Shown: positions 3,890 to 59,984 of the stretch, in pieces
Layout: every line of letters starts with the position of its first letter
How positions within the stretch are numbered: position 1 is the stretch's first letter
Assembly: GCA_964634945.1 (NCBI GenBank)
Contig: CAZWMG010000002.1
Coordinates: forward strand, 38,661-102,660
From: an uncultured Planctomycetia bacterium
GTDB lineage: Bacteria; Omnitrophota; Gorgyraeia; JABMRG01
DNA: 64,000 nt
Direction: 5' to 3'
Position numbers and translations under genes: made by a program
Notes under the pieces: model-generated
Told to the model about the DNA's origin: nothing
The model's input: the letters and a program-made list of their open reading frames with translations, nothing else
Database searches by the model: none

Positions 3890-3893
3890 GTAT

Positions 3894-4529: not shown

Positions 4530-4532
4530 GAT

Positions 4533-11576: not shown

Positions 11577-11665
11577 GGAGAGGTGTCCGAGTTGGTTGAA
11601 GGAGCACGCTTGGAAAGCGTGTATACAGCAATGTATCCAGGGTTCGAATCCCTGCCTCTCCGCCA
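11577..11665 (+). tRNA. tRNA-Ser (anticodon GGA) with a long variable arm and encoded CCA
   Basis: Hand-folded: acceptor GGAGAGG/CCTCTCC, anticodon stem CACGC/GCGTG, loop TTGGAAA, variable arm ATACA/TGTAT, T-arm CAGGG-TTCGAAT-CCCTG, discriminator G, CCA. Confidence 0.85.
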
Positions 11666-13515: not shown

Positions 13516-14205
13516 ATGAAGTTCAAAGGAGTGAATTTAAATAAAATAGATAAGATGGGAGCCCTAGCTTTTAAAAATTGCTTAAGGTTACATTTTGATT
13601 CCATAGTGCTATTTAACAGTAAGTCATATCCTTCGGCGTTGTATTTTTCAATACTATCCCTTGAAGAATTTGGCAAAGCTATTTTATTATCTGATTTTGT
13701 GTGGCACTCTAGAGTAGACGGGAGATATAATGCAGTTCAAGATAAAGATCTTAAAAAAGAATTTGGAGAAGACTTAGAACATTATGTTTTAAAGGAAATT
13801 TATTCACATAGTTATAAACAGCGATATTTTGCTTCTGAAATGTTACAATCACGGAAGAAACCATCACGTCTATTTAAAAGTATAGTCAATAATGAGCTTG
13901 AGACAGAGAAGCAAAACTCGATGTATGTAGGATTTACTAGAAAGAAAGGCAAGATAGATTTCAAAAGCAAGATAAAGCACCCATTCAACATAAAAAGAGA
14001 AAAAGTTTTAAAGCAGATAACTAGGCTTAATGATATACTTTTAGAATTAGTGTTACTTGACATAATATACAATGAAGGCTACTTATTTAACTTGGAGTCA
14101 TCGGAGAGCATTGTAACAAAGCAATTGTATCAAAAGTTATTTGACGTATGGAAATTTAAAAGCAAGCCTGTTTTGCGAAGGTTAAAAAAATGTCAAAAAA
14201 TATAG
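13516..14205 (+). CDS. Possible AbiV/HEPN-like abortive-infection protein
   Basis: The N-terminal 'NCLRLHFDSIVLFNSKSYPSALYFSILSLEEFGKA' resembles the AbiV-family HEPN helix pair. This is from memory and no search was run. Confidence 0.3.
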   Translation: MKFKGVNLNKIDKMGALAFKNCLRLHFDSIVLFNSKSYPSALYFSILSLEEFGKAILLSDFVWHSRVDGRYNAVQDKDLKKEFGEDLEHYVLKEIYSHSYKQRYFASEMLQSRKKPSRLFKSIVNNELETEKQNSMYVGFTRKKGKIDFKSKIKHPFNIKREKVLKQITRLNDILLELVLLDIIYNEGYLFNLESSESIVTKQLYQKLFDVWKFKSKPVLRRLKKCQKI

Positions 14206-36684: not shown

Positions 36685-36716
36685 TTGACATACCATAGGG
36701 GGGTATGGTATACTTT
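36685..36716 (+). promoter_or_regulatory. csoR promoter (TTGACA ... TATACT) overlapped by a palindromic CsoR-type operator, 'ATACCATA-GGGGGG-TATGGTAT'
   Basis: Perfect 8-bp inverted arms around a G6 tract at 36690-36711. This is the known architecture of CsoR operators (G/C tract flanked by an AT-rich inverted repeat). Confidence 0.5.
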
Positions 36717-36735
36717 AGACAAAAGGGAGGAAAAG

Positions 36736-37008
36736 ATGAAAAAATATCCTGAGCATAAAGATAATATCGTCTCATTAAGGCGTGTCGAAGGACAGATTAG
36801 AGGCATTCAGAAGATGGTAGAGGAAGATAAGTATTGTGTTGATATACTGACGCAGATCCAATCAGTAGAAGCAGCGTTAAAAAGAGTAGAAAGGCATATT
36901 TTGCAAAGACATATAGAAAACTGCGTTGTTAACGCGGTTAAGGGGAAATCAGCGATAGAAAAAGATAAAAAACTAAAAGAGGTTTTCCAGTTGCTGAAAA
37001 AAATGTAA
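36736..37008 (+). CDS. csoR: CsoR-family copper-sensing transcriptional repressor. Internal start of track ORF 36685-37008.
   Basis: 'LRRVEGQIRGIQKMVEEDKYCVDILTQIQSVEAAL' plus 'RHIENC' gives the C-H-C metal-ligand fingerprint. RBS 'agggagg'. Confidence 0.75.
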   Translation: MKKYPEHKDNIVSLRRVEGQIRGIQKMVEEDKYCVDILTQIQSVEAALKRVERHILQRHIENCVVNAVKGKSAIEKDKKLKEVFQLLKKM

Positions 37009-37025
37009 AAAAAGGAGGTATTGTA

Positions 37026-37154
37026 ATGAAATATCTTGTTATAAGCTTAGTCATAGTGGTTGTAGCATGGCTTGGCACACACGCGGCCAACGCATTCGGC
37101 ATAGATGATTGCAAGTGCTCACCATGCGCATGCTCACCGTGCGAATGTAACTGA
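37026..37154 (+). CDS. Unannotated 42-aa secreted cysteine-rich peptide immediately downstream of csoR, a candidate Cu-binding peptide
   Basis: Hand translation gives MKYLVISLVIVVVAWLGTHAANAFGIDDCKCSPCACSPCECN*. It has a signal peptide with an AxA site, then six Cys in 13 residues. 'aaggaggt' RBS 6 nt upstream. Confidence 0.45.
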   Translation: MKYLVISLVIVVVAWLGTHAANAFGIDDCKCSPCACSPCECN

Positions 37155-37455
37155 TAATTTTTATAAGGCAGCGACAAAAAAAGGCGTTTTTAGCATCCCC
37201 CTTTTTTTTCATGCCCAAAACCTACTCACAAAATACAATAAGACAGAAAAAAATATAACAGAACGGCAGGCTCCTTAAACAAAAAAATTATTTTAAAATA
37301 TACCAAAGAGACAGCAGTAGCAATATTTGTGCTTGATTCCCCCTTTCTGACTTTTAAGAGTCCAATATATGACGCACTTTACAGCATGCTAGTTGACAAT
37401 AGATTATAAATAGCGTAGAATCATATATATTCATGGGTTTCAAGAAAGGTAAAAA

Positions 37456-37590
37456 ATGAAAAATTTCCTTGTAGCGGTTGTTCTAATATCATCTCTTTTT
37501 TTAAGCGGGTGTACTACATTAAGCGGATTAACTACGATAGCGGGCCTGGTCGCGGCAGGATACGGAATCTACAAGGCGAGTGAAAAATAG
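37456..37590 (+). CDS. Unannotated 44-aa small lipoprotein (entericidin-like architecture)
   Basis: MKNFLVAVVLISSLFLSGCTT... contains a lipobox LSGC, then the Gly-rich amphipathic segment 'IAGLVAAGYGIYKASEK'. TTGACA-17-TAGAAT promoter at 37393-37421. Confidence 0.4.
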   Translation: MKNFLVAVVLISSLFLSGCTTLSGLTTIAGLVAAGYGIYKASEK

Positions 37591-38595: not shown

Positions 38596-39006
38596 ATGAA
38601 GAACATATTGTTTTTGTGTACAGAAAATTCCTGTAGAAGCAAGATTGCAGAAGCCTTTTTAAGGCACATAGCCGGTGATAAATTTAATGCCTATAGTGCT
38701 GGGGTAGGCCCAACTAGCTTAAATCAATTTGCTATCAAGGCAATGCAAGAGATAGGTATCGATATAACCAATCAGAGATCAAAGTCGATCCAAGAGTTAT
38801 CTAACTAGCAATTCCATCGTGTAGTGACTGTATGTGACAATGTAAAACAAAGATGTCCCACCTTCCCGGGTAAGTTTGAAGAGATGTATTGGGGCCTTGA
38901 TAACCCGACAGAGGTAGAGGGCACTGATGAAGAGATTATGAGGGCCTTTAGAAAGACCAGGGATATGATAAAGCAAAATATCAGAGATTTTATCGTGTCA
39001 AGATAG
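38596..39006 (+). pseudogene. arsC: Arsenate reductase / LMW phosphatase family (thioredoxin-type ArsC) interrupted by an in-frame TAG at 38806-38808. The two track ORFs 38596-38808 and 38824-39006 share one frame.
   Basis: P-loop 'LCTENSCRS' (CX5R) in the first part. 'VVTVCDNVKQRCP' (Cys82/Cys89 equivalents) follows directly after the TAG in the same frame. Confidence 0.6.
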
Positions 39007-41773: not shown

Positions 41774-43201
41774 ATGAAATACAAACACGCCTTATTTTTA
41801 AACCCATATGCTATTCGTAAGACCAAATCCGCGTCTATTACGAGGCTATTTCCGCCAACAGGACTAGAGTTTGTCGCTACAAGCGCCAAGGATTATGTTG
41901 AAGATCTCACCCTTCTTGACTTGCGCTATGAAGAAGAGCTCTCGGATATTGACAAGCTGCTGGAGTTTATAGATAATAAGGGCATAGATATAATATGTGT
42001 TGGCATAGGATGGGACAGAGAATTTAAAGATGTTTGCGCCCTCTTAAACGCTATGCCCGCTAATATTCCGTTAGTAGTTGGTGGACACAAGGCTACGGAA
42101 GAGGCAGGTGACCTTTTTGAGCTATGCCCTAATATAGATATCCTTGTAAGAGGAGAAGGCGAGGAGACGATAAGAGATATTATGCGGGATATCCCGCTTA
42201 AAGATATACTGGGCATCTCTTACAGGCAAGGCGATAAAGTGTTACATAATGACACCAGGCCACTTCCGGAGATTGATATAATAAGTTCACCTGATCGCAG
42301 TTTAAGGAGAAATCAGTACCGATTAACAGTGCAGGGAAATAATATTACGAACCTGACATACGATACTATCCTTAGCGCGCGAGGCTGCCCGTTTAATTGC
42401 AAATTCTGCACCTTTACCCTAAATCCACTCGGCCAGAAAAGGCCATACGCGGAAAGGAGTGTGGCCTCCGTTCTGAAAGAAATAGAGAGTATAGAGGCGG
42501 ATATAATCCTTTTTAGTGATGAGAATTTTGCGACAAATGCCAAGAGAGCGGAAAAGATCTGCGATCTGATAATAGAGAAAAAGATTAAGAAGCGTTTTCT
42601 GGCGCAGGTACGCATAGAGATTGCTAATCATCCTCAATTATTGAATAAGATGGTCAAGGCTGGATTTAAGATGCTATCATTAGGCATAGAGAGTCCGCAT
42701 GATCATATATTAAAGGAACTTAACAAGGGCTTTGATTCAAAGAAGATAAGAGAGGCCTTTGCTGTTTTTAGAAAGTATCCTATATTTTACCACGGCTACT
42801 TTATTTATGGTAATATAGGTGAGACGGAAGAAGAGATGCTCTATATCGGCAAATTCGCGAGAGAGATAGGGGTCGATACCATAGCATGCAGCAAGCTTAG
42901 GGTTAGCAAGTTTTCGCCTTTAAAGAAGTTCGTGGATGAATCGCCGAGCCACTACGTTACGGAAAAAGGAGAGATCTATTCTGATGCTTGCAGCCATTCT
43001 GACCTCAAGAGAATAAATAAAGAAACAAAGAGAATGTTCTACACGCCCTACAAGGTGCTTCAAATAACAAAAAAATTTATCAGTACACGCTGGCTTACAT
43101 CAAAAGATATTATTCCGTTGCTATTAGTGGTGCCCGCGTTATTAAAAAGCACCATCGCCAGTGAGAGGCAGAAGGCGAGATCAAAGAACAGACAAAAATA
43201 A
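41774..43201 (+). CDS. B12-binding-domain radical SAM enzyme
   Basis: 'RGCPFNCKFCTF' is the CxxxCxxC radical SAM motif. N-terminal Rossmann-like B12-binding region. Confidence 0.75.
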   Translation: MKYKHALFLNPYAIRKTKSASITRLFPPTGLEFVATSAKDYVEDLTLLDLRYEEELSDIDKLLEFIDNKGIDIICVGIGWDREFKDVCALLNAMPANIPLVVGGHKATEEAGDLFELCPNIDILVRGEGEETIRDIMRDIPLKDILGISYRQGDKVLHNDTRPLPEIDIISSPDRSLRRNQYRLTVQGNNITNLTYDTILSARGCPFNCKFCTFTLNPLGQKRPYAERSVASVLKEIESIEADIILFSDENFATNAKRAEKICDLIIEKKIKKRFLAQVRIEIANHPQLLNKMVKAGFKMLSLGIESPHDHILKELNKGFDSKKIREAFAVFRKYPIFYHGYFIYGNIGETEEEMLYIGKFAREIGVDTIACSKLRVSKFSPLKKFVDESPSHYVTEKGEIYSDACSHSDLKRINKETKRMFYTPYKVLQITKKFISTRWLTSKDIIPLLLVVPALLKSTIASERQKARSKNRQK

Positions 43202-44684: not shown

Positions 44685-47600
44685 ATGGCCAGAAACATTA
44701 ACAGATTCCTATCATATCTAATTATCATAGCGTTCTTATCAACATCTACTAATCTATCCTATCTATCACAACAAGAATTCCAAAGCCAGACAGATACATT
44801 GAGATCCCAGGCAGCGGTCCTTGGATTAGATATCTCTGCAATTCAGGCAAGGCTTGAGTCGCCGGCTCCAGATGTAGCAAGGTCAAGCTCTGCTGGTGAT
44901 GACTCAGATGAAGTCAGCGATATTATGGTTCAGAGCTTCATGCAGAACAATACCGTTGTATTTATTAATAAGGCATTGGAGACAGTAGAGCTTACAGATC
45001 TACCGGCAAGCTACAAAGAGCTTTCAGACAAGTATAAGGGCATACTTTTACAGGAGATAGGAAAGAAAGGTATAGTGGCGTTATTCCAGAGGCTTGAGGA
45101 AGATGCTAATGACTTGTTTAAAGAAGGCAAGGAGAAAGAGGCAACAAATCTTTATAAGTCAGTAATATTCTTTGCTAAGGTTACGGACGCGCTTATAGTG
45201 CATGATAATGAGTTTGACTGGATAGGCAATATTAGCCTTTTAGGAGGAAAGATCGACAACTCTCTTATGCTTTCAAAGGGAAAATTAGAAGTTCCCCCGT
45301 TTTTTGGTATTACATCCATGTTCCAGAAGTATGTATGGTTATATAATGATCTGCTGCCAAAGATGAGAGATATCGCCTTTACAGTCGATCCACAGAATAA
45401 TACAGCGACATCCTCCGCACAGGCAAGATTTGAGCAATTGATAAAAGATACTCATGTGCCTGAAGATTTAAAGTTAATGCTTGAGATTGAGGCAAGAAAG
45501 ATAGCGGATCGCGAGGGTTACGCGTTAACAAAAGAGGAAGCAGACAAGCTTGAGACAGAAGCGATAGAGATTATACTCAGAAGCTCCCAAGGTTTAGAGG
45601 ACAGGCCGGGGATACCTTCTGCTGGTATCGGTTCAAGTGTGCCGACAATGGGCACTGATGGCATGCTGGATGTATTCAAGGATGTCGCCGCATCTGCGTA
45701 TCTTAGAAGGGCGTTAGAATATAGGGATAAGATAGCTATAAGCACATGGTTGCTTTCAAGGATGAACATAGATGAGCTTAAACATATAGTTAATAAGCTT
45801 AAAGGCTTGTCTGAGGTTACGTCTAAGGTCGAGGTTGGCGGGATATTTTATGATACCAGCACAATCGTAGAGGACATAGAGGCCAATCTTTCAGAGGATT
45901 TGCGTTCAAGGAAAGAGTTTGTTAATGTTTCAACATTGAGAGTACTTACATTACTGGAGTTATTGCAGCAGCAGAGCGCTAAGGACGATATTATTGATAA
46001 AGCATTAGTAGAGATAAGAGATGTCCGCATAGATTGCCTTGACGCGGCAAGGATAGGCGGCGGTATACAGACACAGACCATGCGTTCGAGTGAATATTCT
46101 ATTGTCGGCTTCGCGTTAAACAAAGCGACAGGTTGGACAGGTGACGCGAATGATATGGTTGTTATAGATTATGACATCTCCTATGGCAGGGGGGAGCTTA
46201 TTGTGCAAGGCTCTATAATCAGTGATCATTACAAGATATTGCTTAATCTAAAGACCGGTAAGGCCATTATATTATCGAAAGAATGTGGTTCAAAACTCGC
46301 TACATTAAAACGTGCCAAGGCAGGTGAAGAGATAGAGGTCTGGGCAGATTCTAAGCATGAGACAATAGAGACAGTTATTGCGGAAGAAGGAAAGGAATAT
46401 CTAGTAGTAACTCCTGTAGAACAGCGTCAAAGATTTGTTGTTTCAGATAAGAAAGCTATAGAGATAGCGCACAAGATATTAGAGGCTAACACTGTTCATA
46501 ACTCCGGAAGAACCCAGGTTGTGCCGGTAGATATGGAGGCTTGTTATTACCATGACACAAAAGGGAAGTTGCAATATTCCATAGTCCAGAAGAGAGACTC
46601 CGCTATAAAATCAGGTTTCGATTTTGAGGACCCTGATTTTGTTATTCATGCCGGTAAAGAGCCGATAGCCGGGTTAGCAGACGCTGCACAGGAACAGGGT
46701 CATATGAAGGCAAAAGGTTTTGAGACTCAGAACGCCGCAAGTGGTGTAACAGTGTGGGTTGAGGAGCCATCTGCTGACAGAGTTAAAAAGGCGGTAGAGA
46801 ATATATGGGAAGGCGCCAGAGAAGCCGCTTTAAATGAATTTTTACCGCAGGCGCATCCCGATCTCTATACACCAAATGATAAATCAGCGATAATAGAGAA
46901 GATATTAAGAGATAAAAAGATAGTGGATACCGGAATACAGGATGATTTTGATGTAGAAGGTTTTGATTTTGATAAGGCCCGTATCTTAGAAAGAATAATC
47001 AGCAAAGATTCTACACAAGAGGAGGCCATAAAAGAGATTGAAAGTGCTTTTTCAGGTAAATTGGAAAAGGAAGCTATCGTCTCTATCGCTGTGGGAGCAT
47101 TAAAACTCTTTAAAAATACAGCTAATTTAGAAGATAGAATGAGAATATTATCTTCTATAATCAGAGTAAATATATTTTCCTCGCCAAAAGCTGATTTAAA
47201 AAGAGCCTTTATTGAAGAGCACGCGGGAGTACTGGAAAGAGATGTCTTAAATAGGCAGTTTGACAAGATAAAGGCAATGATCAAAGACGGGATAACTGTG
47301 GTAATGGTGACGCCTGAAACAAATCCGAATTTTAATGATATTATGAAGTTTGTAGACGAAAATGGCGGCGCGACAATTACACGGCAAGGAGGTAGGTCTG
47401 CCCACGCTATTATTATATCTATACAATTCGGTTATTGCGTAGTAGGCGGAGCGGAATTCAATGATTCAGATCTTCTGGAAAGAATTAAAAATGGTGACCA
47501 GATACTTTTGACGGTAGATGGTAACAAGGGACAGGTATACGATTTAGAGATACCTATAACGAGTTTCTTTAGCGCGTTTCAACCAAAGCGTTGGGGTAAT

Positions 47601-50600
47601 TATGGGGGAGATATTGGGCTCATAACAAATGCTCCTAATGAAGTTGAAAAGGCATCCAAAAACCATCATTGGCAGGTACCTGTGGATCATGATATGTATC
47701 CTTATATGGAAGGAAAGAAAAGCGTAGGTTATTATTCTGTAAGCTTGGATAGGATAGAGGAGATACTAATAGAATTAGGCCTTGATTTTCGCGGTGCATA
47801 TGCGTATGACAGGATGAACGCGATAAGGGCCAAGGAACTTGATGAATCCACGTTATCAGAGCGCCAGAGAAGCGATGTTGGTAAGTTAAGAGGCAGGCGC
47901 GATCTAGTAACTAAGGTGGCTAAAAAGGTTAATGAGAGGGGCTTTACATCAGCGGTTGAATACCTGCGTCATGAACTGGCTAGCCACTTTAAGCAGATGC
48001 TTGCTACTACAAAACCGGGGCAGGTTGTGCAAGTCAGATTAAGAGATTTAAAGAAGAGAGAGATACTAAAGACTCAGGATACTGCCGAACTTTTTTATAA
48101 TGACGAAGAGGCCTCAATGATAGGTGACAGAGGAACAGGCCTTGAGGTTCATGATGAAAATATAGAGGCGATAGATCTACAGGTTCTTGCTCTGGAAGAT
48201 GCTAGAGCAGAGGCAGAAGAATTAGGTGGGTTAGGTGATTTAGGATTTATGTTTGTTTTTATAAGACGAGTATTAGATGATTCTGAATTAGGCATAGAAT
48301 CAGATCTTAAGAAGGGCCTTAACAGGCTGCTTAAGCTAAGAAGAGAGGGCAAGATTAAACGCATACCAGCGCATGTTGGGGTAATGTTTGAATTGGTAAT
48401 AAACGCTCTTTTGGCTGAGGAGCTCGCTGCGATATTAGCTGATTTTAGAGAGACTGTTAAAAAAGAATTCAATGAGGATATATCAACTTATTTTTCAAAT
48501 GGAACAAATGACCTTACACAGTCTGTCAAGGGAAGCAGGGATGAGACCAGGTATGTAAGTATGGATATAATGATGCCAAATGGTGACATTGTCAAAGGTA
48601 TAAGAGTATTTTATGAGGGCGATCCAGCTGTTGGCGATACGATAGCGCACGGCGCTTTTGTAGCCAAGAAATATGGCCATAAAAGAGGTAGCTGTGGCGA
48701 ATACTTTAATAATCTTTTAAATGCCGGCGATCCTGAATCGATTGACAGTGCAAGAGAGGGTTTTGGAAGGCTCGATTCCGGTGGAACGAGTATCAAGGTT
48801 TTTCCAAGGGCCGTAAAGCTTCTTGCGGATTCACAATTGGCAAAACAGCGCATACCTACTAATGTCGCGGTAAAGGCAGAGGTTGTTGCGGAAGGCAAAT
48901 CTTTGCATGAAAAAGGCGCTGTACACAGGAGGGCGGTCTTTATAAGATCAGAAGAAGATTTTATTACAGAGCGCGTTATTTATAGAGACGGTGGTAAGAA
49001 TAGCGAAGTAAGGTATGCGCCTAAGGCGGTAGAGGGGGATATTTTGATATTGTCAACGGATATTGCCCCTGATAATAAAAAATTACTGGAGGCTCTTGAT
49101 TCTCAGGCAAGCGGTGTAGTGCTTGCAGGCAAGAACGGGGTAAACATAAAAGTGTTACAAGCCTTGCTTGTAGAACGTAATGTTCCAACTATTGTGATAA
49201 AGAAAGAGATATTTACGAGATTGACTGATCTTAAGCAATATGTCTTTGATTTTGAGCGAGGCGCGATATATACAGAGAGCAAGATATCTTTTGATATAGA
49301 AACTGCGGAAAATAAAACAGCGTATGCGCATATAGATTATGACGCAAAACCTAAACAGACATCTGTTGAGACAGTAGATATGGATCATATCTATAATACG
49401 ATCGGTGTCCACCCGCTTGCCCTAACCCTATATGCGTTACATACGGGAGAGATAGAAAACTCTGTTATAGAGACAATAGATGGCGGACAGGTTGTGCGAA
49501 AATTGGAGAAGATACTTTCGCAACAGAGGATACCTCTGCCTAATAATAAATTTCCGGATATGTATAGGGACGTCAAGGAGCTCCTTGATTCGCACAATGT
49601 TGATAGTGTGCGGGCCTTAATAAATAAGGTTACTAAGCAAGCTGTAGAAAGGCACAGAAAAATTTTGCCGAAAGGTACTACGCTTGCCTTTGGTACGTCG
49701 CAACAGGATGCCTGGGCATTTGAGGAGCTAAAATGGGGCAAGCGTGAGACAGAGCTTGAGCTCAATGTATTCAATGTGCCTATAGATTTAAGGGGCCTTG
49801 CCAAGACCATATCCCCTGGATATGGCGATATATTCGAGATGTTTCTTGAGGTAGTAAAGGAAGAAGGGCTGGATATCCAGTTTAATTATGTGCAGGATTT
49901 AAATATCCTTGATGCAGCGATAGAGTTTCTTAATCAGAAAGGGTTAGTGCCTGGAGAGGATGGCTTTAATCTCGGTATGAGCGCGTCTACATCTCACAAC
50001 TTTATAGTAGCATATCGTTATTTCAGTAAAAGAGATATATCTTTTGTTAAGTTTGATGACGAGCTTCTACTAATGAACTTCGCGCTAGCTAATCTTGATC
50101 ATCATACAGATGTAAGGCGCTGGGATGGCAGCTTTGAGTCTTTGATCAATATTAATGAGAGAAGTTACCAAGAGGCATTAAAAAGAGCAAAGGCCATGCT
50201 AAGGACCGCTATGGTTAATCACGATGTAACAGAGGTAACAACTCCCAAAAGCTCCTCAAGCGGCAATAGCGTGCTTAATGAGGCTATGAAATTAGGTGTT
50301 CAGATAGAGCTTGATAAATTATATCTTGCAAGAAAGGCTGATGAATCAGAGAGTACAACTCGTGCGTTTAGTACGAGATTTGTAATAGCAGGAGATGAAT
50401 TCTTTGATAATGAGATCACTACTATGCTGGAGAATTTTAGAACCAAGATTCAAAAAGAGTTTGGTGAGGATGCGACAATTTCTATTTCAGCAGATCCAAA
50501 CGGACCACAAACAGACCTTTCTGTATCTGTATTATTAATACCTAAGTTCACTCCGGTTGCCCAATCAGCTATTCAGGCACAGTTCGATGGGTTGCTCCAG

Positions 50601-52517
50601 TCAATAAAAGATAGCGAGATAGCAGGTTCAAAAGAACAGCTTGGCATAAGGCTTACATTATCAGGAAATGATTTTTTATCTGATGAGTTTGAAGCCATGT
50701 TTGAAGCTTTCAATAGCCAGGTTAGAGATAATTTTGGCAAGAATGTATTCCTAAGTGTTTCAGGTATCGCAGATGGAAGAGAAGGCTTATTTGATTTAGG
50801 GGTCTTAGTAGAGAATGTTAGTACCACGCTGAAATCCAAAGGTTCTTTAAACGTAGTAGGCGACTTTACCCAGTCTGTCAGGGGCAGCAGAGATGAGGAT
50901 GGTTTCGCAACAGTATCTAAGAGCTCTTCAAGCGGTACCATGCTTGAGTCAGGATCAGACAAAAGATTGGCTGTTCAAAGAATGGTTATTCAAGCAAAGC
51001 TCGATTGGCTATATAACAAAAGGGAAGCCATTAGAACAGCACGCTTTAAAGAGCAGCTTAAAGTAAGGTTTACTTTACCATCAGATGTGTTTACCTCGAT
51101 TGGCGTGAAGGATATCCTAGAGGCTTTTCGCGGCAGGATTCAAAAAGATTTTGAAGAAGATGTGAAAATCACTTCTACAGGATATGCGGATGAAGGGGGT
51201 GGAACTATTGATGTGCTTGTATCAATACAGCCTAACAGCGAATCAACAACACCTAGAAGCCATTCAGGCGACACGAACTATGCCGGTATCAGCGAGCATC
51301 ATGCATTAAACGCAGAAGGCGTAAAATATTTTAAGGAACGGATTGAATCAATGGATCCAAGCAATGCAACAGAGGTAGCAGTTGCTCTTTTGTATCCAAT
51401 AAATGGTACGCTGCTTACTTCAGCTACTGCCGCAATGAATAAATTCAGAATTTCTGCCAGAAAAGAACAGGGCATAGAAATAGAGACTTCAATGCTAACT
51501 GATAAAACCGGTATTACCTTATCTATCGGTGGCAACGGAAGTAAAAAAGAGCAAGAATCTAGTGTTAATATATGGAAGACCTCTTCAGGTGGCACTATCC
51601 TTGTGTCAAATACAGAAAAGATATCTACCTTGGTTAGAAATCTTAAAGCAAGTGTTAATGCTCAAGAGAGATTTTCTATCGCCCTTGAGAAGCTTAATGA
51701 AATAGGTCCGGCTGCGGCATCTGAGGCAAAAGAGATCTTTGAAGGCATACAAAAAGAGTTGTTTCATAAGCTTGATGAAGATACTATTGATGTGCTAAGG
51801 ACCTCTGGTTTAACTCTATCCTCATCTGATAAAGAGGCATTGAGGGATATGGTAAGTATCCAGTATCAAGCAGAACAGTATATAAGCAATATCGAAACCA
51901 TAATATATGCGGATAAAGGCAGATTATCGGAGGATACTGCGCCTCGTGTAATGATATTACCAGCGACAACAGCTGTATCAAGCCAAGTTGTGCTTGCCGC
52001 AGAAGAGCTCCAAGCGATAAAGGATAATCTTGGGGTTATAACAGTAGTTAGCAATGACCCTATCGGAACAATTAATAGTATCAAGAAAGGCAAGATACTC
52101 TTTGATGTAAAAGGATCCAATGTCAAGGTCCCTGCTAATAATATTGCGGTAATGCTATCTGAAGATCAGAGAAGTATCGCAGGCGATGTGAGCAAGGCGC
52201 TAGGCACAAACAATACACTCGTAATGAGCAATATATCTACTTCTCAATATGTGCCATTTTCACAACTTGCGATGCTTGCAAAGGTTCAGCTTATACTCAA
52301 CAAAATAGGCGTAACATCAAGCGAAGCAGGGCCATATAGAAGCGCGTTTCTTGCTATATGGAAGGGTGTAACAGGTGCTCCATTTGTTGGTAGTATTGAA
52401 AAGTTTATGGCTAACCCTGTGGCTTACGTTATCAGCATATTGTCTGCACCGGTATCAACACTTAGCGATATAGAAATAAAGATATTACATGACAAGGCTG
52501 CCAGAATCTGGGCGTAA
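44685..52517 (+). CDS. Giant 2610-aa protein with an N-terminal hydrophobic leader, a ~460-aa N-terminal extension, a complete PEP-synthase-like phosphotransferase core (nucleotide-binding N-domain, phosphohistidine swivel domain, PEP-binding TIM-barrel) and a ~1200-aa C-terminal region of degenerate repeats
   Basis: Swivel 'TRQGGRSAHAIIISIQFGYCVVG'. Barrel 'MIGDRGTGLEV', 'ELVINALLAEEL' and 'YFSNGTNDLTQSVKGSRDE', colinear with E. coli PpsA. A degenerate second copy reads 'VGDFTQSVRGSRDE'. Four '..F(R/N)..(I/V)(Q/K/R)K(E/D/N)F.ED' repeat modules. Confidence 0.7.
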   Translation: MARNINRFLSYLIIIAFLSTSTNLSYLSQQEFQSQTDTLRSQAAVLGLDISAIQARLESPAPDVARSSSAGDDSDEVSDIMVQSFMQNNTVVFINKALETVELTDLPASYKELSDKYKGILLQEIGKKGIVALFQRLEEDANDLFKEGKEKEATNLYKSVIFFAKVTDALIVHDNEFDWIGNISLLGGKIDNSLMLSKGKLEVPPFFGITSMFQKYVWLYNDLLPKMRDIAFTVDPQNNTATSSAQARFEQLIKDTHVPEDLKLMLEIEARKIADREGYALTKEEADKLETEAIEIILRSSQGLEDRPGIPSAGIGSSVPTMGTDGMLDVFKDVAASAYLRRALEYRDKIAISTWLLSRMNIDELKHIVNKLKGLSEVTSKVEVGGIFYDTSTIVEDIEANLSEDLRSRKEFVNVSTLRVLTLLELLQQQSAKDDIIDKALVEIRDVRIDCLDAARIGGGIQTQTMRSSEYSIVGFALNKATGWTGDANDMVVIDYDISYGRGELIVQGSIISDHYKILLNLKTGKAIILSKECGSKLATLKRAKAGEEIEVWADSKHETIETVIAEEGKEYLVVTPVEQRQRFVVSDKKAIEIAHKILEANTVHNSGRTQVVPVDMEACYYHDTKGKLQYSIVQKRDSAIKSGFDFEDPDFVIHAGKEPIAGLADAAQEQGHMKAKGFETQNAASGVTVWVEEPSADRVKKAVENIWEGAREAALNEFLPQAHPDLYTPNDKSAIIEKILRDKKIVDTGIQDDFDVEGFDFDKARILERIISKDSTQEEAIKEIESAFSGKLEKEAIVSIAVGALKLFKNTANLEDRMRILSSIIRVNIFSSPKADLKRAFIEEHAGVLERDVLNRQFDKIKAMIKDGITVVMVTPETNPNFNDIMKFVDENGGATITRQGGRSAHAIIISIQFGYCVVGGAEFNDSDLLERIKNGDQILLTVDGNKGQVYDLEIPITSFFSAFQPKRWGNYGGDIGLITNAPNEVEKASKNHHWQVPVDHDMYPYMEGKKSVGYYSVSLDRIEEILIELGLDFRGAYAYDRMNAIRAKELDESTLSERQRSDVGKLRGRRDLVTKVAKKVNERGFTSAVEYLRHELASHFKQMLATTKPGQVVQVRLRDLKKREILKTQDTAELFYNDEEASMIGDRGTGLEVHDENIEAIDLQVLALEDARAEAEELGGLGDLGFMFVFIRRVLDDSELGIESDLKKGLNRLLKLRREGKIKRIPAHVGVMFELVINALLAEELAAILADFRETVKKEFNEDISTYFSNGTNDLTQSVKGSRDETRYVSMDIMMPNGDIVKGIRVFYEGDPAVGDTIAHGAFVAKKYGHKRGSCGEYFNNLLNAGDPESIDSAREGFGRLDSGGTSIKVFPRAVKLLADSQLAKQRIPTNVAVKAEVVAEGKSLHEKGAVHRRAVFIRSEEDFITERVIYRDGGKNSEVRYAPKAVEGDILILSTDIAPDNKKLLEALDSQASGVVLAGKNGVNIKVLQALLVERNVPTIVIKKEIFTRLTDLKQYVFDFERGAIYTESKISFDIETAENKTAYAHIDYDAKPKQTSVETVDMDHIYNTIGVHPLALTLYALHTGEIENSVIETIDGGQVVRKLEKILSQQRIPLPNNKFPDMYRDVKELLDSHNVDSVRALINKVTKQAVERHRKILPKGTTLAFGTSQQDAWAFEELKWGKRETELELNVFNVPIDLRGLAKTISPGYGDIFEMFLEVVKEEGLDIQFNYVQDLNILDAAIEFLNQKGLVPGEDGFNLGMSASTSHNFIVAYRYFSKRDISFVKFDDELLLMNFALANLDHHTDVRRWDGSFESLININERSYQEALKRAKAMLRTAMVNHDVTEVTTPKSSSSGNSVLNEAMKLGVQIELDKLYLARKADESESTTRAFSTRFVIAGDEFFDNEITTMLENFRTKIQKEFGEDATISISADPNGPQTDLSVSVLLIPKFTPVAQSAIQAQFDGLLQSIKDSEIAGSKEQLGIRLTLSGNDFLSDEFEAMFEAFNSQVRDNFGKNVFLSVSGIADGREGLFDLGVLVENVSTTLKSKGSLNVVGDFTQSVRGSRDEDGFATVSKSSSSGTMLESGSDKRLAVQRMVIQAKLDWLYNKREAIRTARFKEQLKVRFTLPSDVFTSIGVKDILEAFRGRIQKDFEEDVKITSTGYADEGGGTIDVLVSIQPNSESTTPRSHSGDTNYAGISEHHALNAEGVKYFKERIESMDPSNATEVAVALLYPINGTLLTSATAAMNKFRISARKEQGIEIETSMLTDKTGITLSIGGNGSKKEQESSVNIWKTSSGGTILVSNTEKISTLVRNLKASVNAQERFSIALEKLNEIGPAAASEAKEIFEGIQKELFHKLDEDTIDVLRTSGLTLSSSDKEALRDMVSIQYQAEQYISNIETIIYADKGRLSEDTAPRVMILPATTAVSSQVVLAAEELQAIKDNLGVITVVSNDPIGTINSIKKGKILFDVKGSNVKVPANNIAVMLSEDQRSIAGDVSKALGTNNTLVMSNISTSQYVPFSQLAMLAKVQLILNKIGVTSSEAGPYRSAFLAIWKGVTGAPFVGSIEKFMANPVAYVISILSAPVSTLSDIEIKILHDKAARIWA

Positions 52518-55950: not shown

Positions 55951-58536
55951 ATGAAAATGATACGGTGGGCGTTTTTATTTATTTTTTTCTTTGTAGCTGT
56001 GCCTTTTACTGGTAGCTATGATACGGTTCTAGCAGAACCGACTGAGACCGTATCATCCTATATACTAGCTGATCTGCAGCACGAGCAGTACTCAGATTTT
56101 TCCCGCATCATATTTGCTTCTAATCAGAAAATAGCTTTTATATCTTATGAACTCGAAAACCCCTATAGGATTGTTATTGACCTTATAGGGGTCTCTTTTT
56201 GCGAGTTGCAGGAATATATTGAATATGAAGAAGGCCTGGTAGAATCTGTTGAGATAATAGAGACACCCTATGTAAAGCATCCGCAGGGACTCGATGAATA
56301 CTTTTATGCGGTAGATTATGTTATTATAACCCCACGCTCTAAGTCCCCCTTTACCGTATCATCATCTGAGGATGAGAAGGTACTCGCAGTTGATATAGGC
56401 AAAAAAACAAAGCCCGCGTTAAGGGTCTCTGAGGTAACCGTATCAGATCTTGAAAAGCCGGAAATTGTCGCAAAACCAGAGAGTAAAGAGAGCCCTCTCC
56501 TTGTTGAGAGGCAGCCGATACCTCAAGAACTTATTACTGAAAAACAACCTGTTGTTAATCAACCTTCTGTTGCTCAAGAGCCGGCACCATTGGCCATAAA
56601 AGAGAAGCTTATAGACTATATCAATGTTGAGATCGTAAATGATGCTTCTTTTGTCATTATTATGTCTAATAGGGATGTTATCTATAAGGTAAAGAGAAAC
56701 CAATATCCTGAGTTTAATATAGTGCTAACGCCTCAGAGTAGAGTCTTTACAGATTTGGAAGAATATGTAGAATTTGATGCAGGATATATGAGATCAATAC
56801 AGATTACTAAGGATTCTGCCATAAGTAAGCCAGAGGCCCTTGACAGCTATTATTATCCTGTAAAAAGTATAATAATAGAGCCAACTGTTGATCTTCCTTT
56901 TGATTTTTATGCTAACGATAACGGAACAATATCTATATTGGAGATATATTATCCTGACATAGAGAAGGAAAAAAAGGATGTCCTGGCTGAGCTGAAGATG
57001 CAAGAGGAATTGATCGCGCAGGACGCGAGAAGAGGGTTACTCATACAGCTTAAAGAAGAGATTAAAAAAGAAGGACTATTGAGACAAGAAAAGGTCACGG
57101 AGTTCAGGCAAGAAGAGATTGAAAAGAGAAAGAAAGAGGCGAGCCAGCAGATTGAGACCATCGGTAGAGAGGTCATAAAGGACCTTCTTGTAAGAGGCAA
57201 AGGCATGTTAAGCCTAAAAGAGTCACAGGCCATTGCTATTGAGAACGACCTACAGGCCAAGACATCTAAAAAGGAGCTAAAGCTCGCGAAACTTAAACAG
57301 AGAGATGCCTTTAGGGCGCTATTTCCTAATGTAAAGCTTAAGGCATCACATACTGCCGGAGATGTTGTTGATGATGTTGCTTTTACAGAAGAGTTATATG
57401 GTGTAGAAGGAGAGCAGGCTATTTATCAGGGCGGCAGGCTTGTGAATGCCTATAATCAGAGCAAGGTTAATGTCTCCCTCTCAGAAGCCAGATATAAGAA
57501 GATAGCCAATGACCTAGATTTTAAGGTTGCCCAGGCTTATTATAATATCGTGACAGCGGTAATGAATATAAGGTTGCAGAAAGAGCTTCTAAGAGAAGCA
57601 GAGGTTATTATCCAGATAGCTGAAAAAAGGCACAAATCAGGCCTAAGCACTAATCTTGAGATATACAATGTTCGATCGCGTTATAATCAGATACAATTTC
57701 AACTCGCTACTACAGAGAGGGATCTGGCATTGGCGCGCTTTAAGCTCAAGCAGGCACTGGGCCTTGATATTAGTGAACAGGTTATAGACCTTTCCGAGGT
57801 TGATACAGAGCTCCCATTTAATATTATAGAGATTAACCTGAATGAGTGCCTCAAGGCAGCGTCAAATAACCAGCCTGACATAATGGTTAATAAGCTTCTT
57901 GTAGAGTCTAATGAGTATGGAGAAAAGATCGCGCAAGGCAAAGAGAGTTTTAGAATAGATTTGACAGGTTTTTACGGCAGAGGAGATTCCTATTACGATA
58001 CAGAACCAAAGAATTTGGATGATAACTGGAATGTAGGCGTAAAGGTTAGCAAGCCTTTCTGGTTTGCTACACCGTCATACTCATTTACAAAGGATAAGAC
58101 CAGTCTGAAGGTTGGAGATACAGATAGGGTAGGCTCAACTGTGAACTCAGGCGAGATAGCAATACTTGATAAAAACTCACTCTCTATAGGCTCAGAGATA
58201 GAGGAAGCAAAGGTTAATAAGCAGAAGGCAGAAAATGAATTGATCGAAACCAGGCGCCAGTTAGCGCTGGAGATAAAAGAGGCATATTATAATTATCAGG
58301 AGTCTATCTTACAGGTTAAAAACGCGTTGGAAAAGGTCCGTTTTCATACTGAGGCTGTAAAGGTTGCCAGGGCGCAGGCCGGTTTAAATGAAGCTCTCCA
58401 GTCACAACTTTTGGAATCTGTAATACAGCTTGCCGATGAAAAATCAGTTTATATAAAAGCGCTATCAGATTATAGTCTGGCGATAGTAAAGATAAATAAA
58501 GTAATAGGTATAAAAGATTATTTTAATGTTAATTAA
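55951..58536 (+). CDS. Outer-membrane efflux factor (TolC family) with a ~400-aa N-terminal extension containing two AMIN-like domains and a P/Q-rich linker
   Basis: Signal peptide. 'RIIFASNQKIAFISYELENPYRIVIDLIGV' (AMIN-like). The C-terminal half has the duplicated OEP repeat pattern. Confidence 0.6.
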   Translation: MKMIRWAFLFIFFFVAVPFTGSYDTVLAEPTETVSSYILADLQHEQYSDFSRIIFASNQKIAFISYELENPYRIVIDLIGVSFCELQEYIEYEEGLVESVEIIETPYVKHPQGLDEYFYAVDYVIITPRSKSPFTVSSSEDEKVLAVDIGKKTKPALRVSEVTVSDLEKPEIVAKPESKESPLLVERQPIPQELITEKQPVVNQPSVAQEPAPLAIKEKLIDYINVEIVNDASFVIIMSNRDVIYKVKRNQYPEFNIVLTPQSRVFTDLEEYVEFDAGYMRSIQITKDSAISKPEALDSYYYPVKSIIIEPTVDLPFDFYANDNGTISILEIYYPDIEKEKKDVLAELKMQEELIAQDARRGLLIQLKEEIKKEGLLRQEKVTEFRQEEIEKRKKEASQQIETIGREVIKDLLVRGKGMLSLKESQAIAIENDLQAKTSKKELKLAKLKQRDAFRALFPNVKLKASHTAGDVVDDVAFTEELYGVEGEQAIYQGGRLVNAYNQSKVNVSLSEARYKKIANDLDFKVAQAYYNIVTAVMNIRLQKELLREAEVIIQIAEKRHKSGLSTNLEIYNVRSRYNQIQFQLATTERDLALARFKLKQALGLDISEQVIDLSEVDTELPFNIIEINLNECLKAASNNQPDIMVNKLLVESNEYGEKIAQGKESFRIDLTGFYGRGDSYYDTEPKNLDDNWNVGVKVSKPFWFATPSYSFTKDKTSLKVGDTDRVGSTVNSGEIAILDKNSLSIGSEIEEAKVNKQKAENELIETRRQLALEIKEAYYNYQESILQVKNALEKVRFHTEAVKVARAQAGLNEALQSQLLESVIQLADEKSVYIKALSDYSLAIVKINKVIGIKDYFNVN

Positions 58537-58562
58537 ATGATTCAAGGAGAAGGAGTAAAATA

Positions 58563-59984
58563 ATGAGTATCTTTAAATTCAGGTTTGGAAAGAACAAGCC
58601 CGAGGACTCCCCTGGTGCGGGCAAGGACCCTGTATCTGAAAATAGTAAAGATGAAAAACCAAAGGAACCTGCAAAGGGCATGTTTAAGAAACCTGAGAAA
58701 AAGAACAACATGGCTGATCAGATGAAAAATATTATAAAGAAAAAACCAACGGCCTTTACCACTGCCAAAGAAAGATCATTACTGCGGCCTGTTATGCTTA
58801 TGCTGACAGTTCTTATATGTCTTGCCGCTCTTGGCCTTATGTTAGGCCCGAAATACGCCCCTGAACTTATGGACAGAATAGGCGCTACAAAGATTATTGA
58901 AAAGATACCTTTTTTAAGGCAAGAACCTGAGGAAGAGCTTCTGATGCCTGAGGAAGAGGTTGTAGAGGAACTTGTAACGGTTAGAACATATCGTGCTATA
59001 AGAGGGGATTTTGTAGATATTTTACCCGGCATGGGTACTATAAAAGGCGATAGAGAAGTGAATCTAAGATTCTCTGTTAATGGGATAATTGATTCTATCA
59101 ATTTCTTTGAAGGCGATCTATTAAGAAGAGGCGATATTGTAGCGACACTTGATCAGAAGGACGCGTTATTGAAGCTCGAATATTCAAAGAGCAAACATAA
59201 GACACAGCAGATATCCGAAGAGGCGTCAAAAAAGAGGCTCGAGATGAATCAGGCACTTTTCGCGGACGGCATAATAATAAAACCAAAATTGGATGAGGTG
59301 CAGTTTGAGTACGAAAGCGTTAAGTCCCAGACCAAGTCCGCGCAAAAGGAGGTAGAATTTGCCTTAGCGGAGCTGGATAAGACCTATCTCTACTCACCCA
59401 TAGACAGTGTAATGGGTACTCGAGATGTGGAGGTCGGCGAGTTTGTAACATCTAATGTTAAGGTAGCTTCTCTTTACGATACATCTACAGTAATAGCGGA
59501 GATGGGCGTTATAGAGAAAGATATAAACAGGATCGCGCTTGGACAGAAGGCCAAGGTAACTGTTGATACGTATCCTGGTGTGGAATTTGAAGGAGAGATC
59601 GAAAATATAGCGCCTATAATAGAGGGAAAATCAAGGACCTTAACTGTTCAGATAAGGCTGAAGAATAATAATACAAGAGGAACGCTTCTACCCGGGATGT
59701 TCGCCCGGATATGGATATCAGTCTATGAAAAGAAGAATACTATCAAATTACCCACGTCATGTTTTTATGATATTGATAATAATGGTGAGTTCGATTCTAT
59801 ATATGTAGTTGGGGATGAGAATATCGCCAAGGAGACGCAGGTTAAGATAGGATATGTTTCCACGGATTACATGGAAGTAACAGATGGTATGCGGGAGGGC
59901 GAGCAGGCAGTTTCAGAATCTATGGCAGAACTTAGAGACGGTGTTAAAGTCGATGTAATAGAGGTTCAGGAGGCCGCGTTTTAA
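58563..59984 (+). CDS. Efflux RND periplasmic adaptor (membrane fusion protein, HlyD family)
   Basis: Single TM 'LMLTVLICLAALGLML'. Lipoyl/beta-barrel motifs 'GDIVATLD' and 'GQKAKVTVDTYPGVEFEGEI'. Confidence 0.7.
   Translation: MSIFKFRFGKNKPEDSPGAGKDPVSENSKDEKPKEPAKGMFKKPEKKNNMADQMKNIIKKKPTAFTTAKERSLLRPVMLMLTVLICLAALGLMLGPKYAPELMDRIGATKIIEKIPFLRQEPEEELLMPEEEVVEELVTVRTYRAIRGDFVDILPGMGTIKGDREVNLRFSVNGIIDSINFFEGDLLRRGDIVATLDQKDALLKLEYSKSKHKTQQISEEASKKRLEMNQALFADGIIIKPKLDEVQFEYESVKSQTKSAQKEVEFALAELDKTYLYSPIDSVMGTRDVEVGEFVTSNVKVASLYDTSTVIAEMGVIEKDINRIALGQKAKVTVDTYPGVEFEGEIENIAPIIEGKSRTLTVQIRLKNNNTRGTLLPGMFARIWISVYEKKNTIKLPTSCFYDIDNNGEFDSIYVVGDENIAKETQVKIGYVSTDYMEVTDGMREGEQAVSESMAELRDGVKVDVIEVQEAAF

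Follow-up and report, generated by a model that had tools for sequence, protein, structure and literature searches.

The window, by which we mean the whole 64,000-nt stretch of DNA that was analysed, carries a compact two-gene locus. The gene csoR, encoding a repressor of the CsoR/RcnR family, is followed by a 42-codon open reading frame (ORF), and the pair lies between a σ70-type promoter overlapped by a predicted operator and a probable terminator (Table 1). A 107-residue version of csoR, started from TTG at 36685, was rejected; because this TTG is part of the -35 hexamer, we take csoR to encode 90 residues from the ATG at 36736. The csoR stop codon occupies 37006–37008, which leaves 17 nt before the ATG of the small ORF. 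An earlier note on this DNA had drawn attention to a short ORF soon after the csoR stop, correctly in all but the distance, which it gave as 18 nt; the ribosome-binding site AAGGAGGT (37012–37019) and the translation are exactly as it quoted them. Its further claim that the ORF is absent from annotation does not strictly hold, since gene-calling programs have already picked it out in public assemblies, where it figures as a nameless 42-aa product (P0001). An antisense ORF on the same DNA (36938–37177, 79 aa) was discarded, its length not being kept in two related loci (L008 and L009), and a search of the csoR–peptide region against Rfam identified no RNA family. The terminator hairpin of the window is weak (-12.1 kcal/mol, z -1.4); at this place the loci of relatives show clear GC-stem hairpins and a T-rich stretch.

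Table 1. Features of the csoR–peptide locus, in window coordinates
Feature	Position	Strand	Remarks
-35 hexamer TTGACA of the csoR–peptide promoter	36685..36690	+	11/12 consensus match together with the -10; 18-nt spacer
Predicted CsoR operator, palindrome ATACCATA-GGGGGG-TATGGTAT	36690..36711	+	core TAC-N9-GTA at 36691-36705
Extended -10, TGgTATACT	36706..36714	+	TG precedes the second hexamer; overlaps the operator's 3' arm with its first bases
csoR ribosome-binding site GGGAGG	36725..36730	+	read from the sequence; 5 nt 5' of ATG 36736
csoR, 90-aa CsoR/RcnR-family repressor	36736..37008	+	PF02583; C34, H59, C63, Y33, Q40, R16
Ribosome-binding site of the peptide gene, AAGGAGGT	37012..37019	+	read from the sequence
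42-aa ORF	37026-37154	+	starts at ATG 37026; ends with TGA, then TAA
Predicted Sec signal peptide MKYLVISLVIVVVAWLGTHAANA	37026..37094	+	rule-based; predicted cut after A-N-A
Predicted mature 19-aa peptide FGIDDCKCSPCACSPCECN and TGA stop	37095..37154	+	6 Cys; monoisotopic mass 1993.7 Da
Probable terminator of the two-gene transcript	37173..37210	+	weak A/U-rich hairpin, then T-run

The spacer of the promoter is occupied by the palindrome ATACCATAGGGGGGTATGGTAT (36690–36711), whose arms ATACCATA and TATGGTAT are 100% complementary and enclose six G residues. This agrees with the perfect 8-bp arms around a G6 tract, placed over the -35 and -10 elements, that the earlier note had described: the element is situated between TTGACA and TATACT (36709–36714), fills the 18-nt spacer and is accompanied by a TG extension of the -10 hexamer. 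CsoR operators follow the published motif 5'-TAC-X9-GTA-3' with a G-tract (PMC3902906). TAC-CATAGGGGG-GTA, at 36691–36705 within the spacer, fits both the TAC-N9-GTA pattern and the G-tract, and its motif marks the predicted operator as one of the copper-CsoR type. Within the 64 kb the pattern ATACCNNNGGGGGGTAT is found at a single site; at zero mismatches it appeared in none of 100 shuffles, and no second copy was found in the window even when two mismatches were allowed. Across nine loci that encode homologues of the 42-residue peptide, a 28-nt promoter/operator island is near-invariant and the surrounding upstream DNA is unconserved; the -35 hexamer TTGACA is identical in eight aligned loci and in L102, and the -10 hexamer is TATACT or TATAAT in every peptide locus.

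The csoR product matched PF02583 with 95.3 bits (cut-off 22.8, E 3e-27), and the solved structures closest to it are those of copper CsoRs, 4M1P (1e-19) and 4ADZ. It presents the x-C-H-C fingerprint, with a Cys, a His 25 residues on and a second Cys 4 residues further, and a Tyr stands before the first Cys. Y33-C34, H59 and C63 (Y-C and H-x3-C motifs) align with their equivalents in 4M1P and 4ADZ, the two Cys and the His falling on the copper ligands, in keeping with the Cu(I)-type C-H-C ligand set first noted from the sequence. The ligand and DNA-contact residues hardly vary across 86 aligned CsoRs, 64 of which precede a copA-type ATPase: Y33, C34, H59, C63 and Q40 are the same in every one, and R16 is kept in 85.

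The 42-codon ORF is a genuine gene under purifying selection and is strictly linked to csoR. The earlier note had named a lack of similar tiny ORFs beside csoR homologues as grounds for refuting its reading, a test that the locus passed strongly: nine distinct peptide homologues are now known, every one immediately 3' of csoR and behind a matching 28-nt promoter/operator. The spacer between the two genes measures 14–21 nt, an AAGGAGG-type site is present in each locus, and a hairpin follows the peptide gene. All nine homologues share the core CxCxPCxCxxCxC, in which six Cys and one Pro are invariant and the TGC/TGT, Ser and Pro codons vary freely. Pooled pS was 0.83, with synonymous sites saturated, as against a pN of 0.13, and pN/pS within the core was 0.16. 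The CsoR proteins of these loci are as little as about 50% identical, and the flanking genes are unlike from one locus to the next. This two-gene unit was seen only in a few uncultured bacteria.

Homologues of the peptide were scarce in protein collections. With the window peptide alone, a word-indexed search of 5.8 billion proteins returned only the peptide itself; a three-sequence profile gained two members, and a nine-sequence profile gained none beyond six catalogued clusters. Exhaustive phmmer against 1.84 billion representatives gave six matches, one of which (P0005, 160 aa) was dismissed as a spurious repeat protein, and four candidates from a metagenome DNA scan (L094–L097) were likewise dismissed as CSPC-type repeats within large unrelated ORFs. 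Plasmid tblastn and a sequence search of solved structures gave nothing, and no relevant paper on a small ORF following csoR came up in the literature. The window peptide belongs to no Pfam or NCBIfam family, and its relatives have only sub-threshold matches to PF12669. When 80 related genome loci were inspected for other small Cys-rich ORFs after csoR, only L008 and L009 were positive. The position of the peptide is instead taken by a copA-type ATPase in 64 of the 80 closest csoR loci of a species-representative genome collection, and neither copA nor copZ was found among the scanned ORFs of the window; the partner of this csoR thus differs from the usual CopA or CopZ, as had been suggested.

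The window peptide begins with Met-Lys, followed by 16 uncharged residues. An uncharged stretch of this length is found in five of the eight members measured, and the stretch reaches 19–24 residues in three. Residues at -3 and -1 are small in all nine members, a Gly lies 5–7 positions before the predicted cut (mostly at -7), and similar N-termini occur on clearly secreted proteins of the same window. The N-termini fit a cleavable Sec signal peptide, as predicted by rules, and the predicted mature forms have 17–20 residues, a mass of about 2 kDa and 30–35% Cys. AlphaFold2 modelled the window peptide at low confidence (overall pLDDT 65) as a helix over residues 2–24 with an unstructured Cys tail (pLDDT about 52). 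The predicted mature form is small, has roughly 30% Cys in CxC and CxxC spacing and, in the AlphaFold2 model, takes no fixed fold without metal, which is the profile by which metallothioneins are recognized.

We interpret the locus as a self-contained two-gene unit, repressed by CsoR and induced by copper, whose exported peptide serves as an extracytoplasmic Cu(I)-thiolate sponge, an interpretation to which we give a slightly better than even chance. At low cytoplasmic Cu(I), CsoR tetramers would sit on the TAC-N9-GTA/G6 operator, and we propose that RNA polymerase would be excluded because the operator fills the 18-nt spacer between the -35 and -10 hexamers. Binding of Cu(I) to C34, H59 and C63 would cause CsoR to let go of the operator, and one short transcript would then be made, carrying csoR (under negative autoregulation) and the 42-codon gene and ending at the hairpin. 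Translation of the peptide would be driven by its own strong ribosome-binding site, and the product would be exported via the Sec pathway and cut after Ala-x-Ala. The resulting 17–20-residue, ~2-kDa product with its six invariant Cys would stay in the cell envelope, probably in the periplasm; the window contains a gene for a TolC-like outer-membrane protein (OEP), which suggests a two-membrane cell. In an anaerobic host, the envelope thiolates of the peptide would bind Cu(I), and the peptide would act as a copper sponge, its gene standing where related CsoR loci have that of the CopA efflux pump.

We infer export, cleavage, induction by copper and Cu(I)-thiolate binding, with the peptide probably soaking up copper outside the cytoplasm. 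Its six Cys are the number of thiolates required for a Cu4(S-Cys)6 cluster, and in dMTF-1 a stretch with six Cys builds a cluster of four Cu(I) (PMC2396432). An anaerobic host is probable, because rubrerythrin genes are present in the window and the closest loci are affiliated with Omnitrophota/PVC. Two considerations count against the sponge: thiols exposed beyond the cytoplasm would become oxidised in any host but an anaerobe, and a sponge that takes up copper stoichiometrically, with no efflux pump to assist it, offers limited protection. The weak terminator of the window and the longer uncharged stretches of three members also weigh on that side.

These longer stretches, together with the single continuous helix predicted by AlphaFold2, would suit an N-terminal segment that is not cleaved, in which case the product would be a single-span mini membrane protein with its Cys-rich tail at the membrane surface. 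We consider this unlikely. Such a protein would act at the membrane, for instance by capturing metal beside a transporter or by modulating one, and could perhaps be distantly related, or else analogous, to the Cys-rich membrane proteins associated with FeoB (PF12669). PF12669 is the only curated family that gives a signal across the members: seven of the nine match nearly the whole 44-position model, with scores of 14.1–26.7 bits that all fall below the curated cut-off of 27 and that may stem from nothing more than the shared composition, in which a hydrophobic helix is combined with cysteines. These full-length, sub-threshold matches lead us to keep the uncleaved anchor under consideration. 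The two sets of proteins resemble each other in size (about 40–60 residues in PF12669), in the N-terminal hydrophobic helix, in the Cys-rich C-terminus and in a gene position beside a metal-homeostasis gene, the PF12669 proteins likewise accompanying a metal system, Feo (PMC8749426). They are themselves uncharacterised, and even their translation is not established (PMC8749426). However, the window peptide has no PF12669 match even at E 10, the Cys spacing differs (Cx3-5Cx2-3Cx6-8C in PF12669 (PMC8749426) versus CxCxxCxCxxCxC here), and the partner gene is feoB there and csoR here; feoB was not found beside the peptide gene in loci with examined flanks. The short uncharged stretch of five of the eight measured members, and the small -3 and -1 residues of all, are also more like those of cleaved signal peptides.

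The inducer could be something other than copper. Another thiophilic metal (Ag, Cd, Zn or Ni) or reactive sulfur species might be the signal, and the peptide a thiol or persulfide buffer; this we judge improbable. The C-H-C fingerprint with a Tyr before the first Cys is that of copper CsoRs, the 64 relatives encoded ahead of copA-type ATPases show no change in the ligand residues, and the predicted operator is of the copper-CsoR type. Persulfide sensors of the CsoR/RcnR family (CstR) are not known to have the His. On the other side, members of this family sense Ni/Co, formaldehyde or persulfide besides copper (PMC5016687, PMC3320959), and in Thermus sulfur oxidation is regulated by a protein of the CsoR family (PMC10318464). 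InrS is a nickel sensor in spite of its CsoR-like ligands (PMC3320959), so the ligands alone cannot reveal the metal specificity of such regulators. Three of the nine peptide loci adjoin thiazole or sulfur-assimilation genes. Adjacency to Thi4 (thiazole synthase) was also considered as a general theme and dropped, there being too few cases (two independent loci, and one more with a thi operon).

The peptide might also be the precursor of a ribosomally synthesized and modified peptide (RiPP), carrying bufferin-like thiooxazoles or radical-SAM thioethers installed by enzymes encoded elsewhere in the genome. The earlier note had offered a Cys-rich, RiPP-like precursor as its alternative, and our results disfavour it to the point where we find it distinctly improbable. 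Copper-binding modified peptides typically have short Cys-rich cores, to which bufferins add a Sec signal peptide; bufferins, which have conserved Cys (6 or 12 in one subfamily), are inducible by metal stress and act as periplasmic copper buffers (PMC11626156). The product described here resembles them in its small size and its conserved cysteines, and would do so in its Sec signal if the rule-based prediction is right. Bufferin clusters, however, always hold an MNIO (DUF692) and a DUF2063 partner, and their Cys are converted to thiooxazoles (PMC11626156); Pfam tables and scans of the flanks place neither family near any of the nine peptide loci. Nor do the flanks of these loci have a radical-SAM maturase or a peptidase/exporter in common. 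A gene for a B12-binding radical SAM protein does lie in the window, 4.6 kb downstream of the peptide (41774–43201), but it is missing from the other loci, and a terminator closes the module directly after the peptide gene. The peptides matched neither DUF2282 (Pfam, E 10) nor any bufferin-type NCBIfam model, and BufA1-type (DUF2282) precursors differ from the 42-aa product in having 80–120 residues and being partly folded. Control differs too, resting with SigF/NrsF in the Caulobacter bufferin model and with CsoR here. For precursors of the SCIFF/ranthipeptide kind, with six Cys in about 45 residues, we found no match to SCIFF or to another NCBIfam peptide-precursor model and no conserved radical SAM neighbour.

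Chance can hardly explain the small ORF, as a frame that happens to be open in the 3' untranslated region of csoR while only the repressor and terminator are functional. The ORF has just 42 codons and matches no curated family, but nine loci retain its reading frame, its start codon, its ribosome-binding site and all six Cys codons, the antisense ORF on the same DNA is not kept in length, and the pS of 0.83 (saturated) against a pN of 0.13 contradicts such a reading.

We compared the favoured CsoR-controlled, exported Cu(I)-thiolate peptide with known copper systems. In loci of the csoR-copA/copZ type, the repressor family, the ligand set, the operator type and the position of the operator over the promoter are alike, and the difference lies in what follows csoR, a P1B-type ATPase in 64 of 80 relatives and a 42-aa peptide here. 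Another related system is the regulon of RicR, a CsoR paralogue of Mycobacterium tuberculosis, which has the Cu(I) metallothionein MymT and the small ORFs socAB under its control (PMC3944814). In both systems a self-regulating CsoR-type repressor with a palindromic operator governs a tiny Cys-rich protein that binds copper, as predicted here and as known there (PMC3944814, PMC7558416), and the targets of RicR likewise include other small ORFs and not just an efflux pump (PMC3944814). MymT, however, is a cytoplasmic protein of 4.9 kDa encoded at a separate locus, whereas the peptide has an export-type N-terminus, would measure ~2 kDa after the predicted cleavage and would share one transcript with its repressor.

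The window peptide matched no metallothionein family in Pfam, and none appeared among the matches from the 1.84 billion representatives; the sole metallothionein signal was a weak one, of P0008 to Metallothio_11 (E 0.021, 15.4 bits, cut-off 27). Plain thiolate-cluster metallothioneins are regarded as cytoplasmic, and most of the known bacterial proteins that handle periplasmic copper do so with Met/His sites, with folded bundles lined by Cys (Csp1) or with enzymatically modified cysteines (bufferins). Csp1 is exported and uses its cysteine thiolates for extracytoplasmic storage of Cu(I) (PMC7558416), a property that the peptide would share if it is exported and binds Cu(I) as we propose. The two differ in build: Csp1 is exported by Tat as a pre-folded four-helix bundle that forms tetramers and holds 13 Cu(I) per monomer, whereas the peptide is short, unstructured alone according to AlphaFold2, and has a predicted Sec-type signal.

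On our best reading, the peptide adds a variant to metallothionein- or bufferin-like copper buffering. We advance more tentatively, at somewhat short of an even chance, the stronger claim that it is the first natural, unmodified, Sec-exported peptide of metallothionein type: a ~2-kDa hexacysteine 17–20-mer that, in anaerobic Omnitrophota/PVC bacteria, would form an extracytoplasmic cluster of the Cu4(S-Cys)6 type, as the effector of a CsoR switch and in a portable two-gene cassette that replaces an efflux pump.

Small ORFs beside regulators are easily overlooked, and two of the nine homologues are missing from a catalogue of 15 billion proteins as the 40–41-aa products read here. The small size of the switch makes it testable even though its hosts are uncultured. 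If the kinship with PF12669 is real, it would link two orphan sets of Cys-rich mini-proteins, those that accompany Feo and those that accompany CsoR. If our interpretation is true, a repressor, an operator and a gene of 42 codons would together rank among the smallest known units of metal defence that are complete in themselves, and anaerobes would be able to run metallothionein chemistry in their envelope by means of a copper-switched, exported and unmodified hexacysteine peptide.

The small open reading frame that follows csoR is, on comparative grounds, almost certainly a real gene. Homologues occur in an Omnitrophota MAG (L008), a PVC-group MAG (L009), JGI metagenomes (L088-L093) and protein catalogues (P0002, P0003, P0004, P0006, P0007 and P0008), giving a total of nine distinct peptide sequences of 40-43 aa, among which M1, K2, six cysteines and one proline are invariant (motif CxCxPCxCxxCxC). 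In the pooled 13-codon core the synonymous difference is 0.83 per site versus 0.13 per non-synonymous site, and Cys, Ser and Pro codons interchange freely, the signature of a translated and selected peptide. The family is very small: exhaustive searching of 1.84 billion representative proteins brought no further credible members, and the window peptide is not claimed by any entry in Pfam, NCBIfam or PDB. Two metagenome-scan matches on GC-rich contigs (L094 2894-2980 and L095 4001-4066), consisting of (CxCSP)n-like ACACSPCACSPCECSPCECSPC in a long open frame that lacks a signal peptide and is not accompanied by csoR, were rejected as chance or low complexity. The peptides of L008 (4288-4413) and L009 (4290-4412) are missing as 40-41-aa products from a 15-billion-protein catalogue, and the ORF listing gives longer GTG- or TTG-started versions instead; gene calling can thus miss or mis-start such ORFs.

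Features of the csoR-peptide cassette and of a TolC-like gene in the window
Feature	Position	Strand	Remarks
Promoter	TTGACA 36685-36690; TATACT 36709-36714	+	18-nt spacer; 11/12 consensus match, TG extension
Operator palindrome ATACCATA-GGGGGG-TATGGTAT	36690-36711	+	perfect 8-nt inverted arms; fills promoter spacer
Operator core TAC-CATAGGGGG-GTA	36691-36705	+	fits published CsoR motif
csoR	36736-37008		ATG start; product 90 aa
csoR-to-peptide spacer, containing the RBS AAGGAGGT	between 37008 and 37026	+	17 nt
Peptide ORF, product MKYLVISLVIVVVAWLGTHAANAFGIDDCKCSPCACSPCECN	37026-37154	+	42 codons; 17 nt after csoR stop
TolC-like OEP gene	55951-58536	+	

Homologous tiny ORFs beside csoR, which the earlier note had suggested seeking in related genomes, are indeed present: all nine distinct sequences are csoR-linked, and every locus has the order promoter/operator, csoR (90-93 aa), 14-21 nt with AAGGAGG, peptide and hairpin. 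That note had placed the ORF correctly downstream of csoR, but its 18-nt gap is one nucleotide too long. The terminator is weak in the window and clear in its relatives. Flanking genes are unlike from locus to locus (rubrerythrin and a potassium channel in the window; rubrerythrin and a glycosyltransferase in L088; a 1269-aa surface protein and a cupin in L008; an unknown protein and adenylate cyclase in L009; thiE-S-G-H in L098; AbiEii and a nucleotidyltransferase in L100; a divergent Rrf2/sulfur-assimilation cluster and a convergent Thi4 in L102), and the conserved unit is therefore exactly two genes.

Several csoR genes have thiazole or sulfur genes beside them, which could reflect coincidence or a sulfur-copper link: a Thi4-type thiazole synthase adjoins csoR in L010 (2254-3039) and in L093/L102 (364-1173 / 5230-5799), thiE-thiS-thiG-thiH directly follows the csoR-peptide pair in L098 (1004-3730), and L102 carries a divergent Rrf2-PAPS reductase-PHO4-PALP cluster (1245-4534).

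The palindrome lies over the promoter just as first described from the sequence. Within the 64 kb its pattern, ATACCNNNGGGGGGTAT, is found a single time, and 100 shuffles gave no occurrence; the window holds no second copy, even allowing two mismatches. Published CsoR operators have 5'-TAC-X9-GTA-3' around G-tracts in common (PMC3902906). In an alignment of the DNA upstream of csoR from the window, from six further loci with the peptide and from L010, a Planctomycetia csoR locus, a 28-nt island, TTGACATACC-nTn-GGGGGGTATGGTATA, was the sole common stretch in otherwise unrelated DNA; L102 also carries it. Given that the operator fills the -35/-10 spacer, we infer that bound CsoR must exclude RNA polymerase, the classical mechanism. 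In L010 this promoter/operator, together with a csoR showing 49% identity, precedes a different gene set (3919-7516), encoding a 338-aa outer-membrane beta-barrel-like protein, a 231-aa secreted protein and a 136-aa lipoprotein, none of the three with a Pfam match, and an FtsX-type permease-like protein seen in ORF translation only. Controlled by CsoR, this set could represent an envelope system that replaces copA.

The regulator matches PF02583 (E 3e-27); a TTG start was rejected because this triplet is part of the -35 hexamer. Among solved structures, the closest are two copper CsoRs, 4M1P (Geobacillus thermodenitrificans, 1e-19) and 4ADZ (Streptomyces lividans), with whose copper-site residues Y33-C34, H59 and C63 align. 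These residues and Q40 are without variation among 86 aligned CsoR relatives, and R16 is present in 85; the S. lividans counterparts of Q40 and R16 are the DNA-contact residues Q81 and R57 (PMC3902906). Among the 80 closest csoR loci found in a species-representative genome collection, 64 have a CopA-type P1B ATPase ORF (MxCxxC and DKTGT) within 200 nt after csoR, where the peptide sits here. The copper-site alignment, invariant residues and copA-type neighbours of relatives together mark the window protein, at the sequence level, as an unexceptional CsoR of the copper-sensing branch. Metal specificity cannot be proven from sequence in this family, since InrS has the same ligands and senses nickel (PMC3320959).

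All members begin with Met-Lys followed by an uncharged stretch, which has 16 residues in five of the eight members and 19-24 residues in the other three. Ahead of the predicted cleavage point, by 5-7 residues, there is a Gly (usually at -7), and small residues occupy -3/-1 (such as A-N-A, S-N-A, V-Q-A, V-S-A, V-T-A, A-Y-A, A-S-A and A-K-G). By rule, this n-h-c layout would be that of a signal peptide processed by signal peptidase I, and comparable N-termini occur on proteins of the window that are plainly secreted. After cleavage the products would be 17-20 aa long and 1.8-2.0 kDa in mass, with 30-35% Cys, and most would be acidic. The positive N-terminus and neutral to acidic C-flank favour a tail outside, and the TolC-like OEP gene suggests a two-membrane cell. 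Export is thus likely. An uncleaved membrane anchor, a less probable reading, draws some support from PF12669, the FeoB-associated Cys-rich mini membrane proteins: this family matches seven of nine members over the full model, which may reflect distant kinship or shared composition, but every score is below the cut-off (best 26.7 bits versus 27), the window peptide gives no hit, the published Cys spacing differs, and feoB was not found in the flanks examined. The AlphaFold2 model has a helix at residues 2-24 and leaves the Cys tail disordered, which is compatible with a signal peptide as well as with an anchor; the tail may fold only on metal. A SCIFF-type radical-SAM precursor was rejected, with no NCBIfam match.

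Further genes were noted in the window. The 861-aa OEP and a CusB/HlyD-type barrel-sandwich membrane-fusion protein (55951-59984, +) lie 19 kb downstream of csoR with no CsoR operator copy nearby. A 44-aa lipoprotein-like ORF (37393-37590, +; MKNFLVAVVLISSLFLSGC..., LSGC lipobox) has a near-consensus promoter (TTGACA-17-TAGAAT) and is conserved in L088 within 5460-5663. An LMW phosphatase/ArsC-type gene (PF01451; 38596-39006, +) is split by an in-frame TAG (38806-38808; ...QELSN*QFHRVVTVCDN...), after which the frame resumes; the same 70-aa call in independent assemblies shows that this is no sequencing error, and the gene could be a pseudogene or subject to stop-codon read-through. A tRNA (11577-11662), phage-type integrase (12484-13515) and AbiV/HEPN gene (13516-14205), all +, suggest the border of an integrated island. 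A 2610-aa ORF (44685-52517, +) has PPDK_N, PEP-utilizers and PEP-utilizers_C in its first 1340 residues and no Pfam match in the last ~1270. Elsewhere, two Bacillaceae csoR loci contain 73-76-aa ORFs with repeated CxxxC (L057 2126-2347, L070 1287-1517 (-); e.g. ...CAEICAQ...CANVCEQCAAECEKF...), with an apparent resemblance to cytoplasmic four-helix Cys-rich copper-binding proteins.

In the proposed mechanism, cytoplasmic copper would load CsoR and open the promoter, yielding more CsoR and exported peptide. The host is probably anaerobic, judging by rubrerythrin genes at 35999 and 39738 and by its Omnitrophota/PVC relatives, and in its envelope six thiolates would capture Cu(I), so that less free copper would arrive in the cytoplasm or at the enzymes of the envelope. 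The peptide's six cysteines match the need of a Cu4S6 cluster, an example being the six-Cys copper-sensor stretch of dMTF-1 (PMC2396432). The regulatory logic appears very probable and copper binding by the peptide reasonably so; towards the whole model, a CsoR-switched exported Cu(I)-thiolate peptide, we lean slightly.

Functionally, the closest parallel is the RicR regulon: RicR, itself a CsoR paralogue, represses MymT, a Cu(I) metallothionein, along with the small ORFs socAB (PMC3944814). MymT, however, stays in the cytoplasm and its gene is not linked to that of the regulator, whereas this peptide is csoR-linked with an export-type N-terminus. Csp1 demonstrates that copper storage on Cys thiolates can be exported, but Tat exports it as a folded protein (PMC7558416). 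The bufferins, copper-binding peptides exported through Sec, are defined by MNIO and DUF2063 enzymes, which convert their cysteines to thiooxazoles (PMC11626156); neither gene lies beside any of the nine loci. No earlier description of the csoR-peptide cassette turned up in the searchable literature. The cassette is real, conserved and lineage-restricted, and more solid than the earlier note could have known; it would represent copper-inducible Cys-based buffering, of a known kind, with a putative biochemical role.
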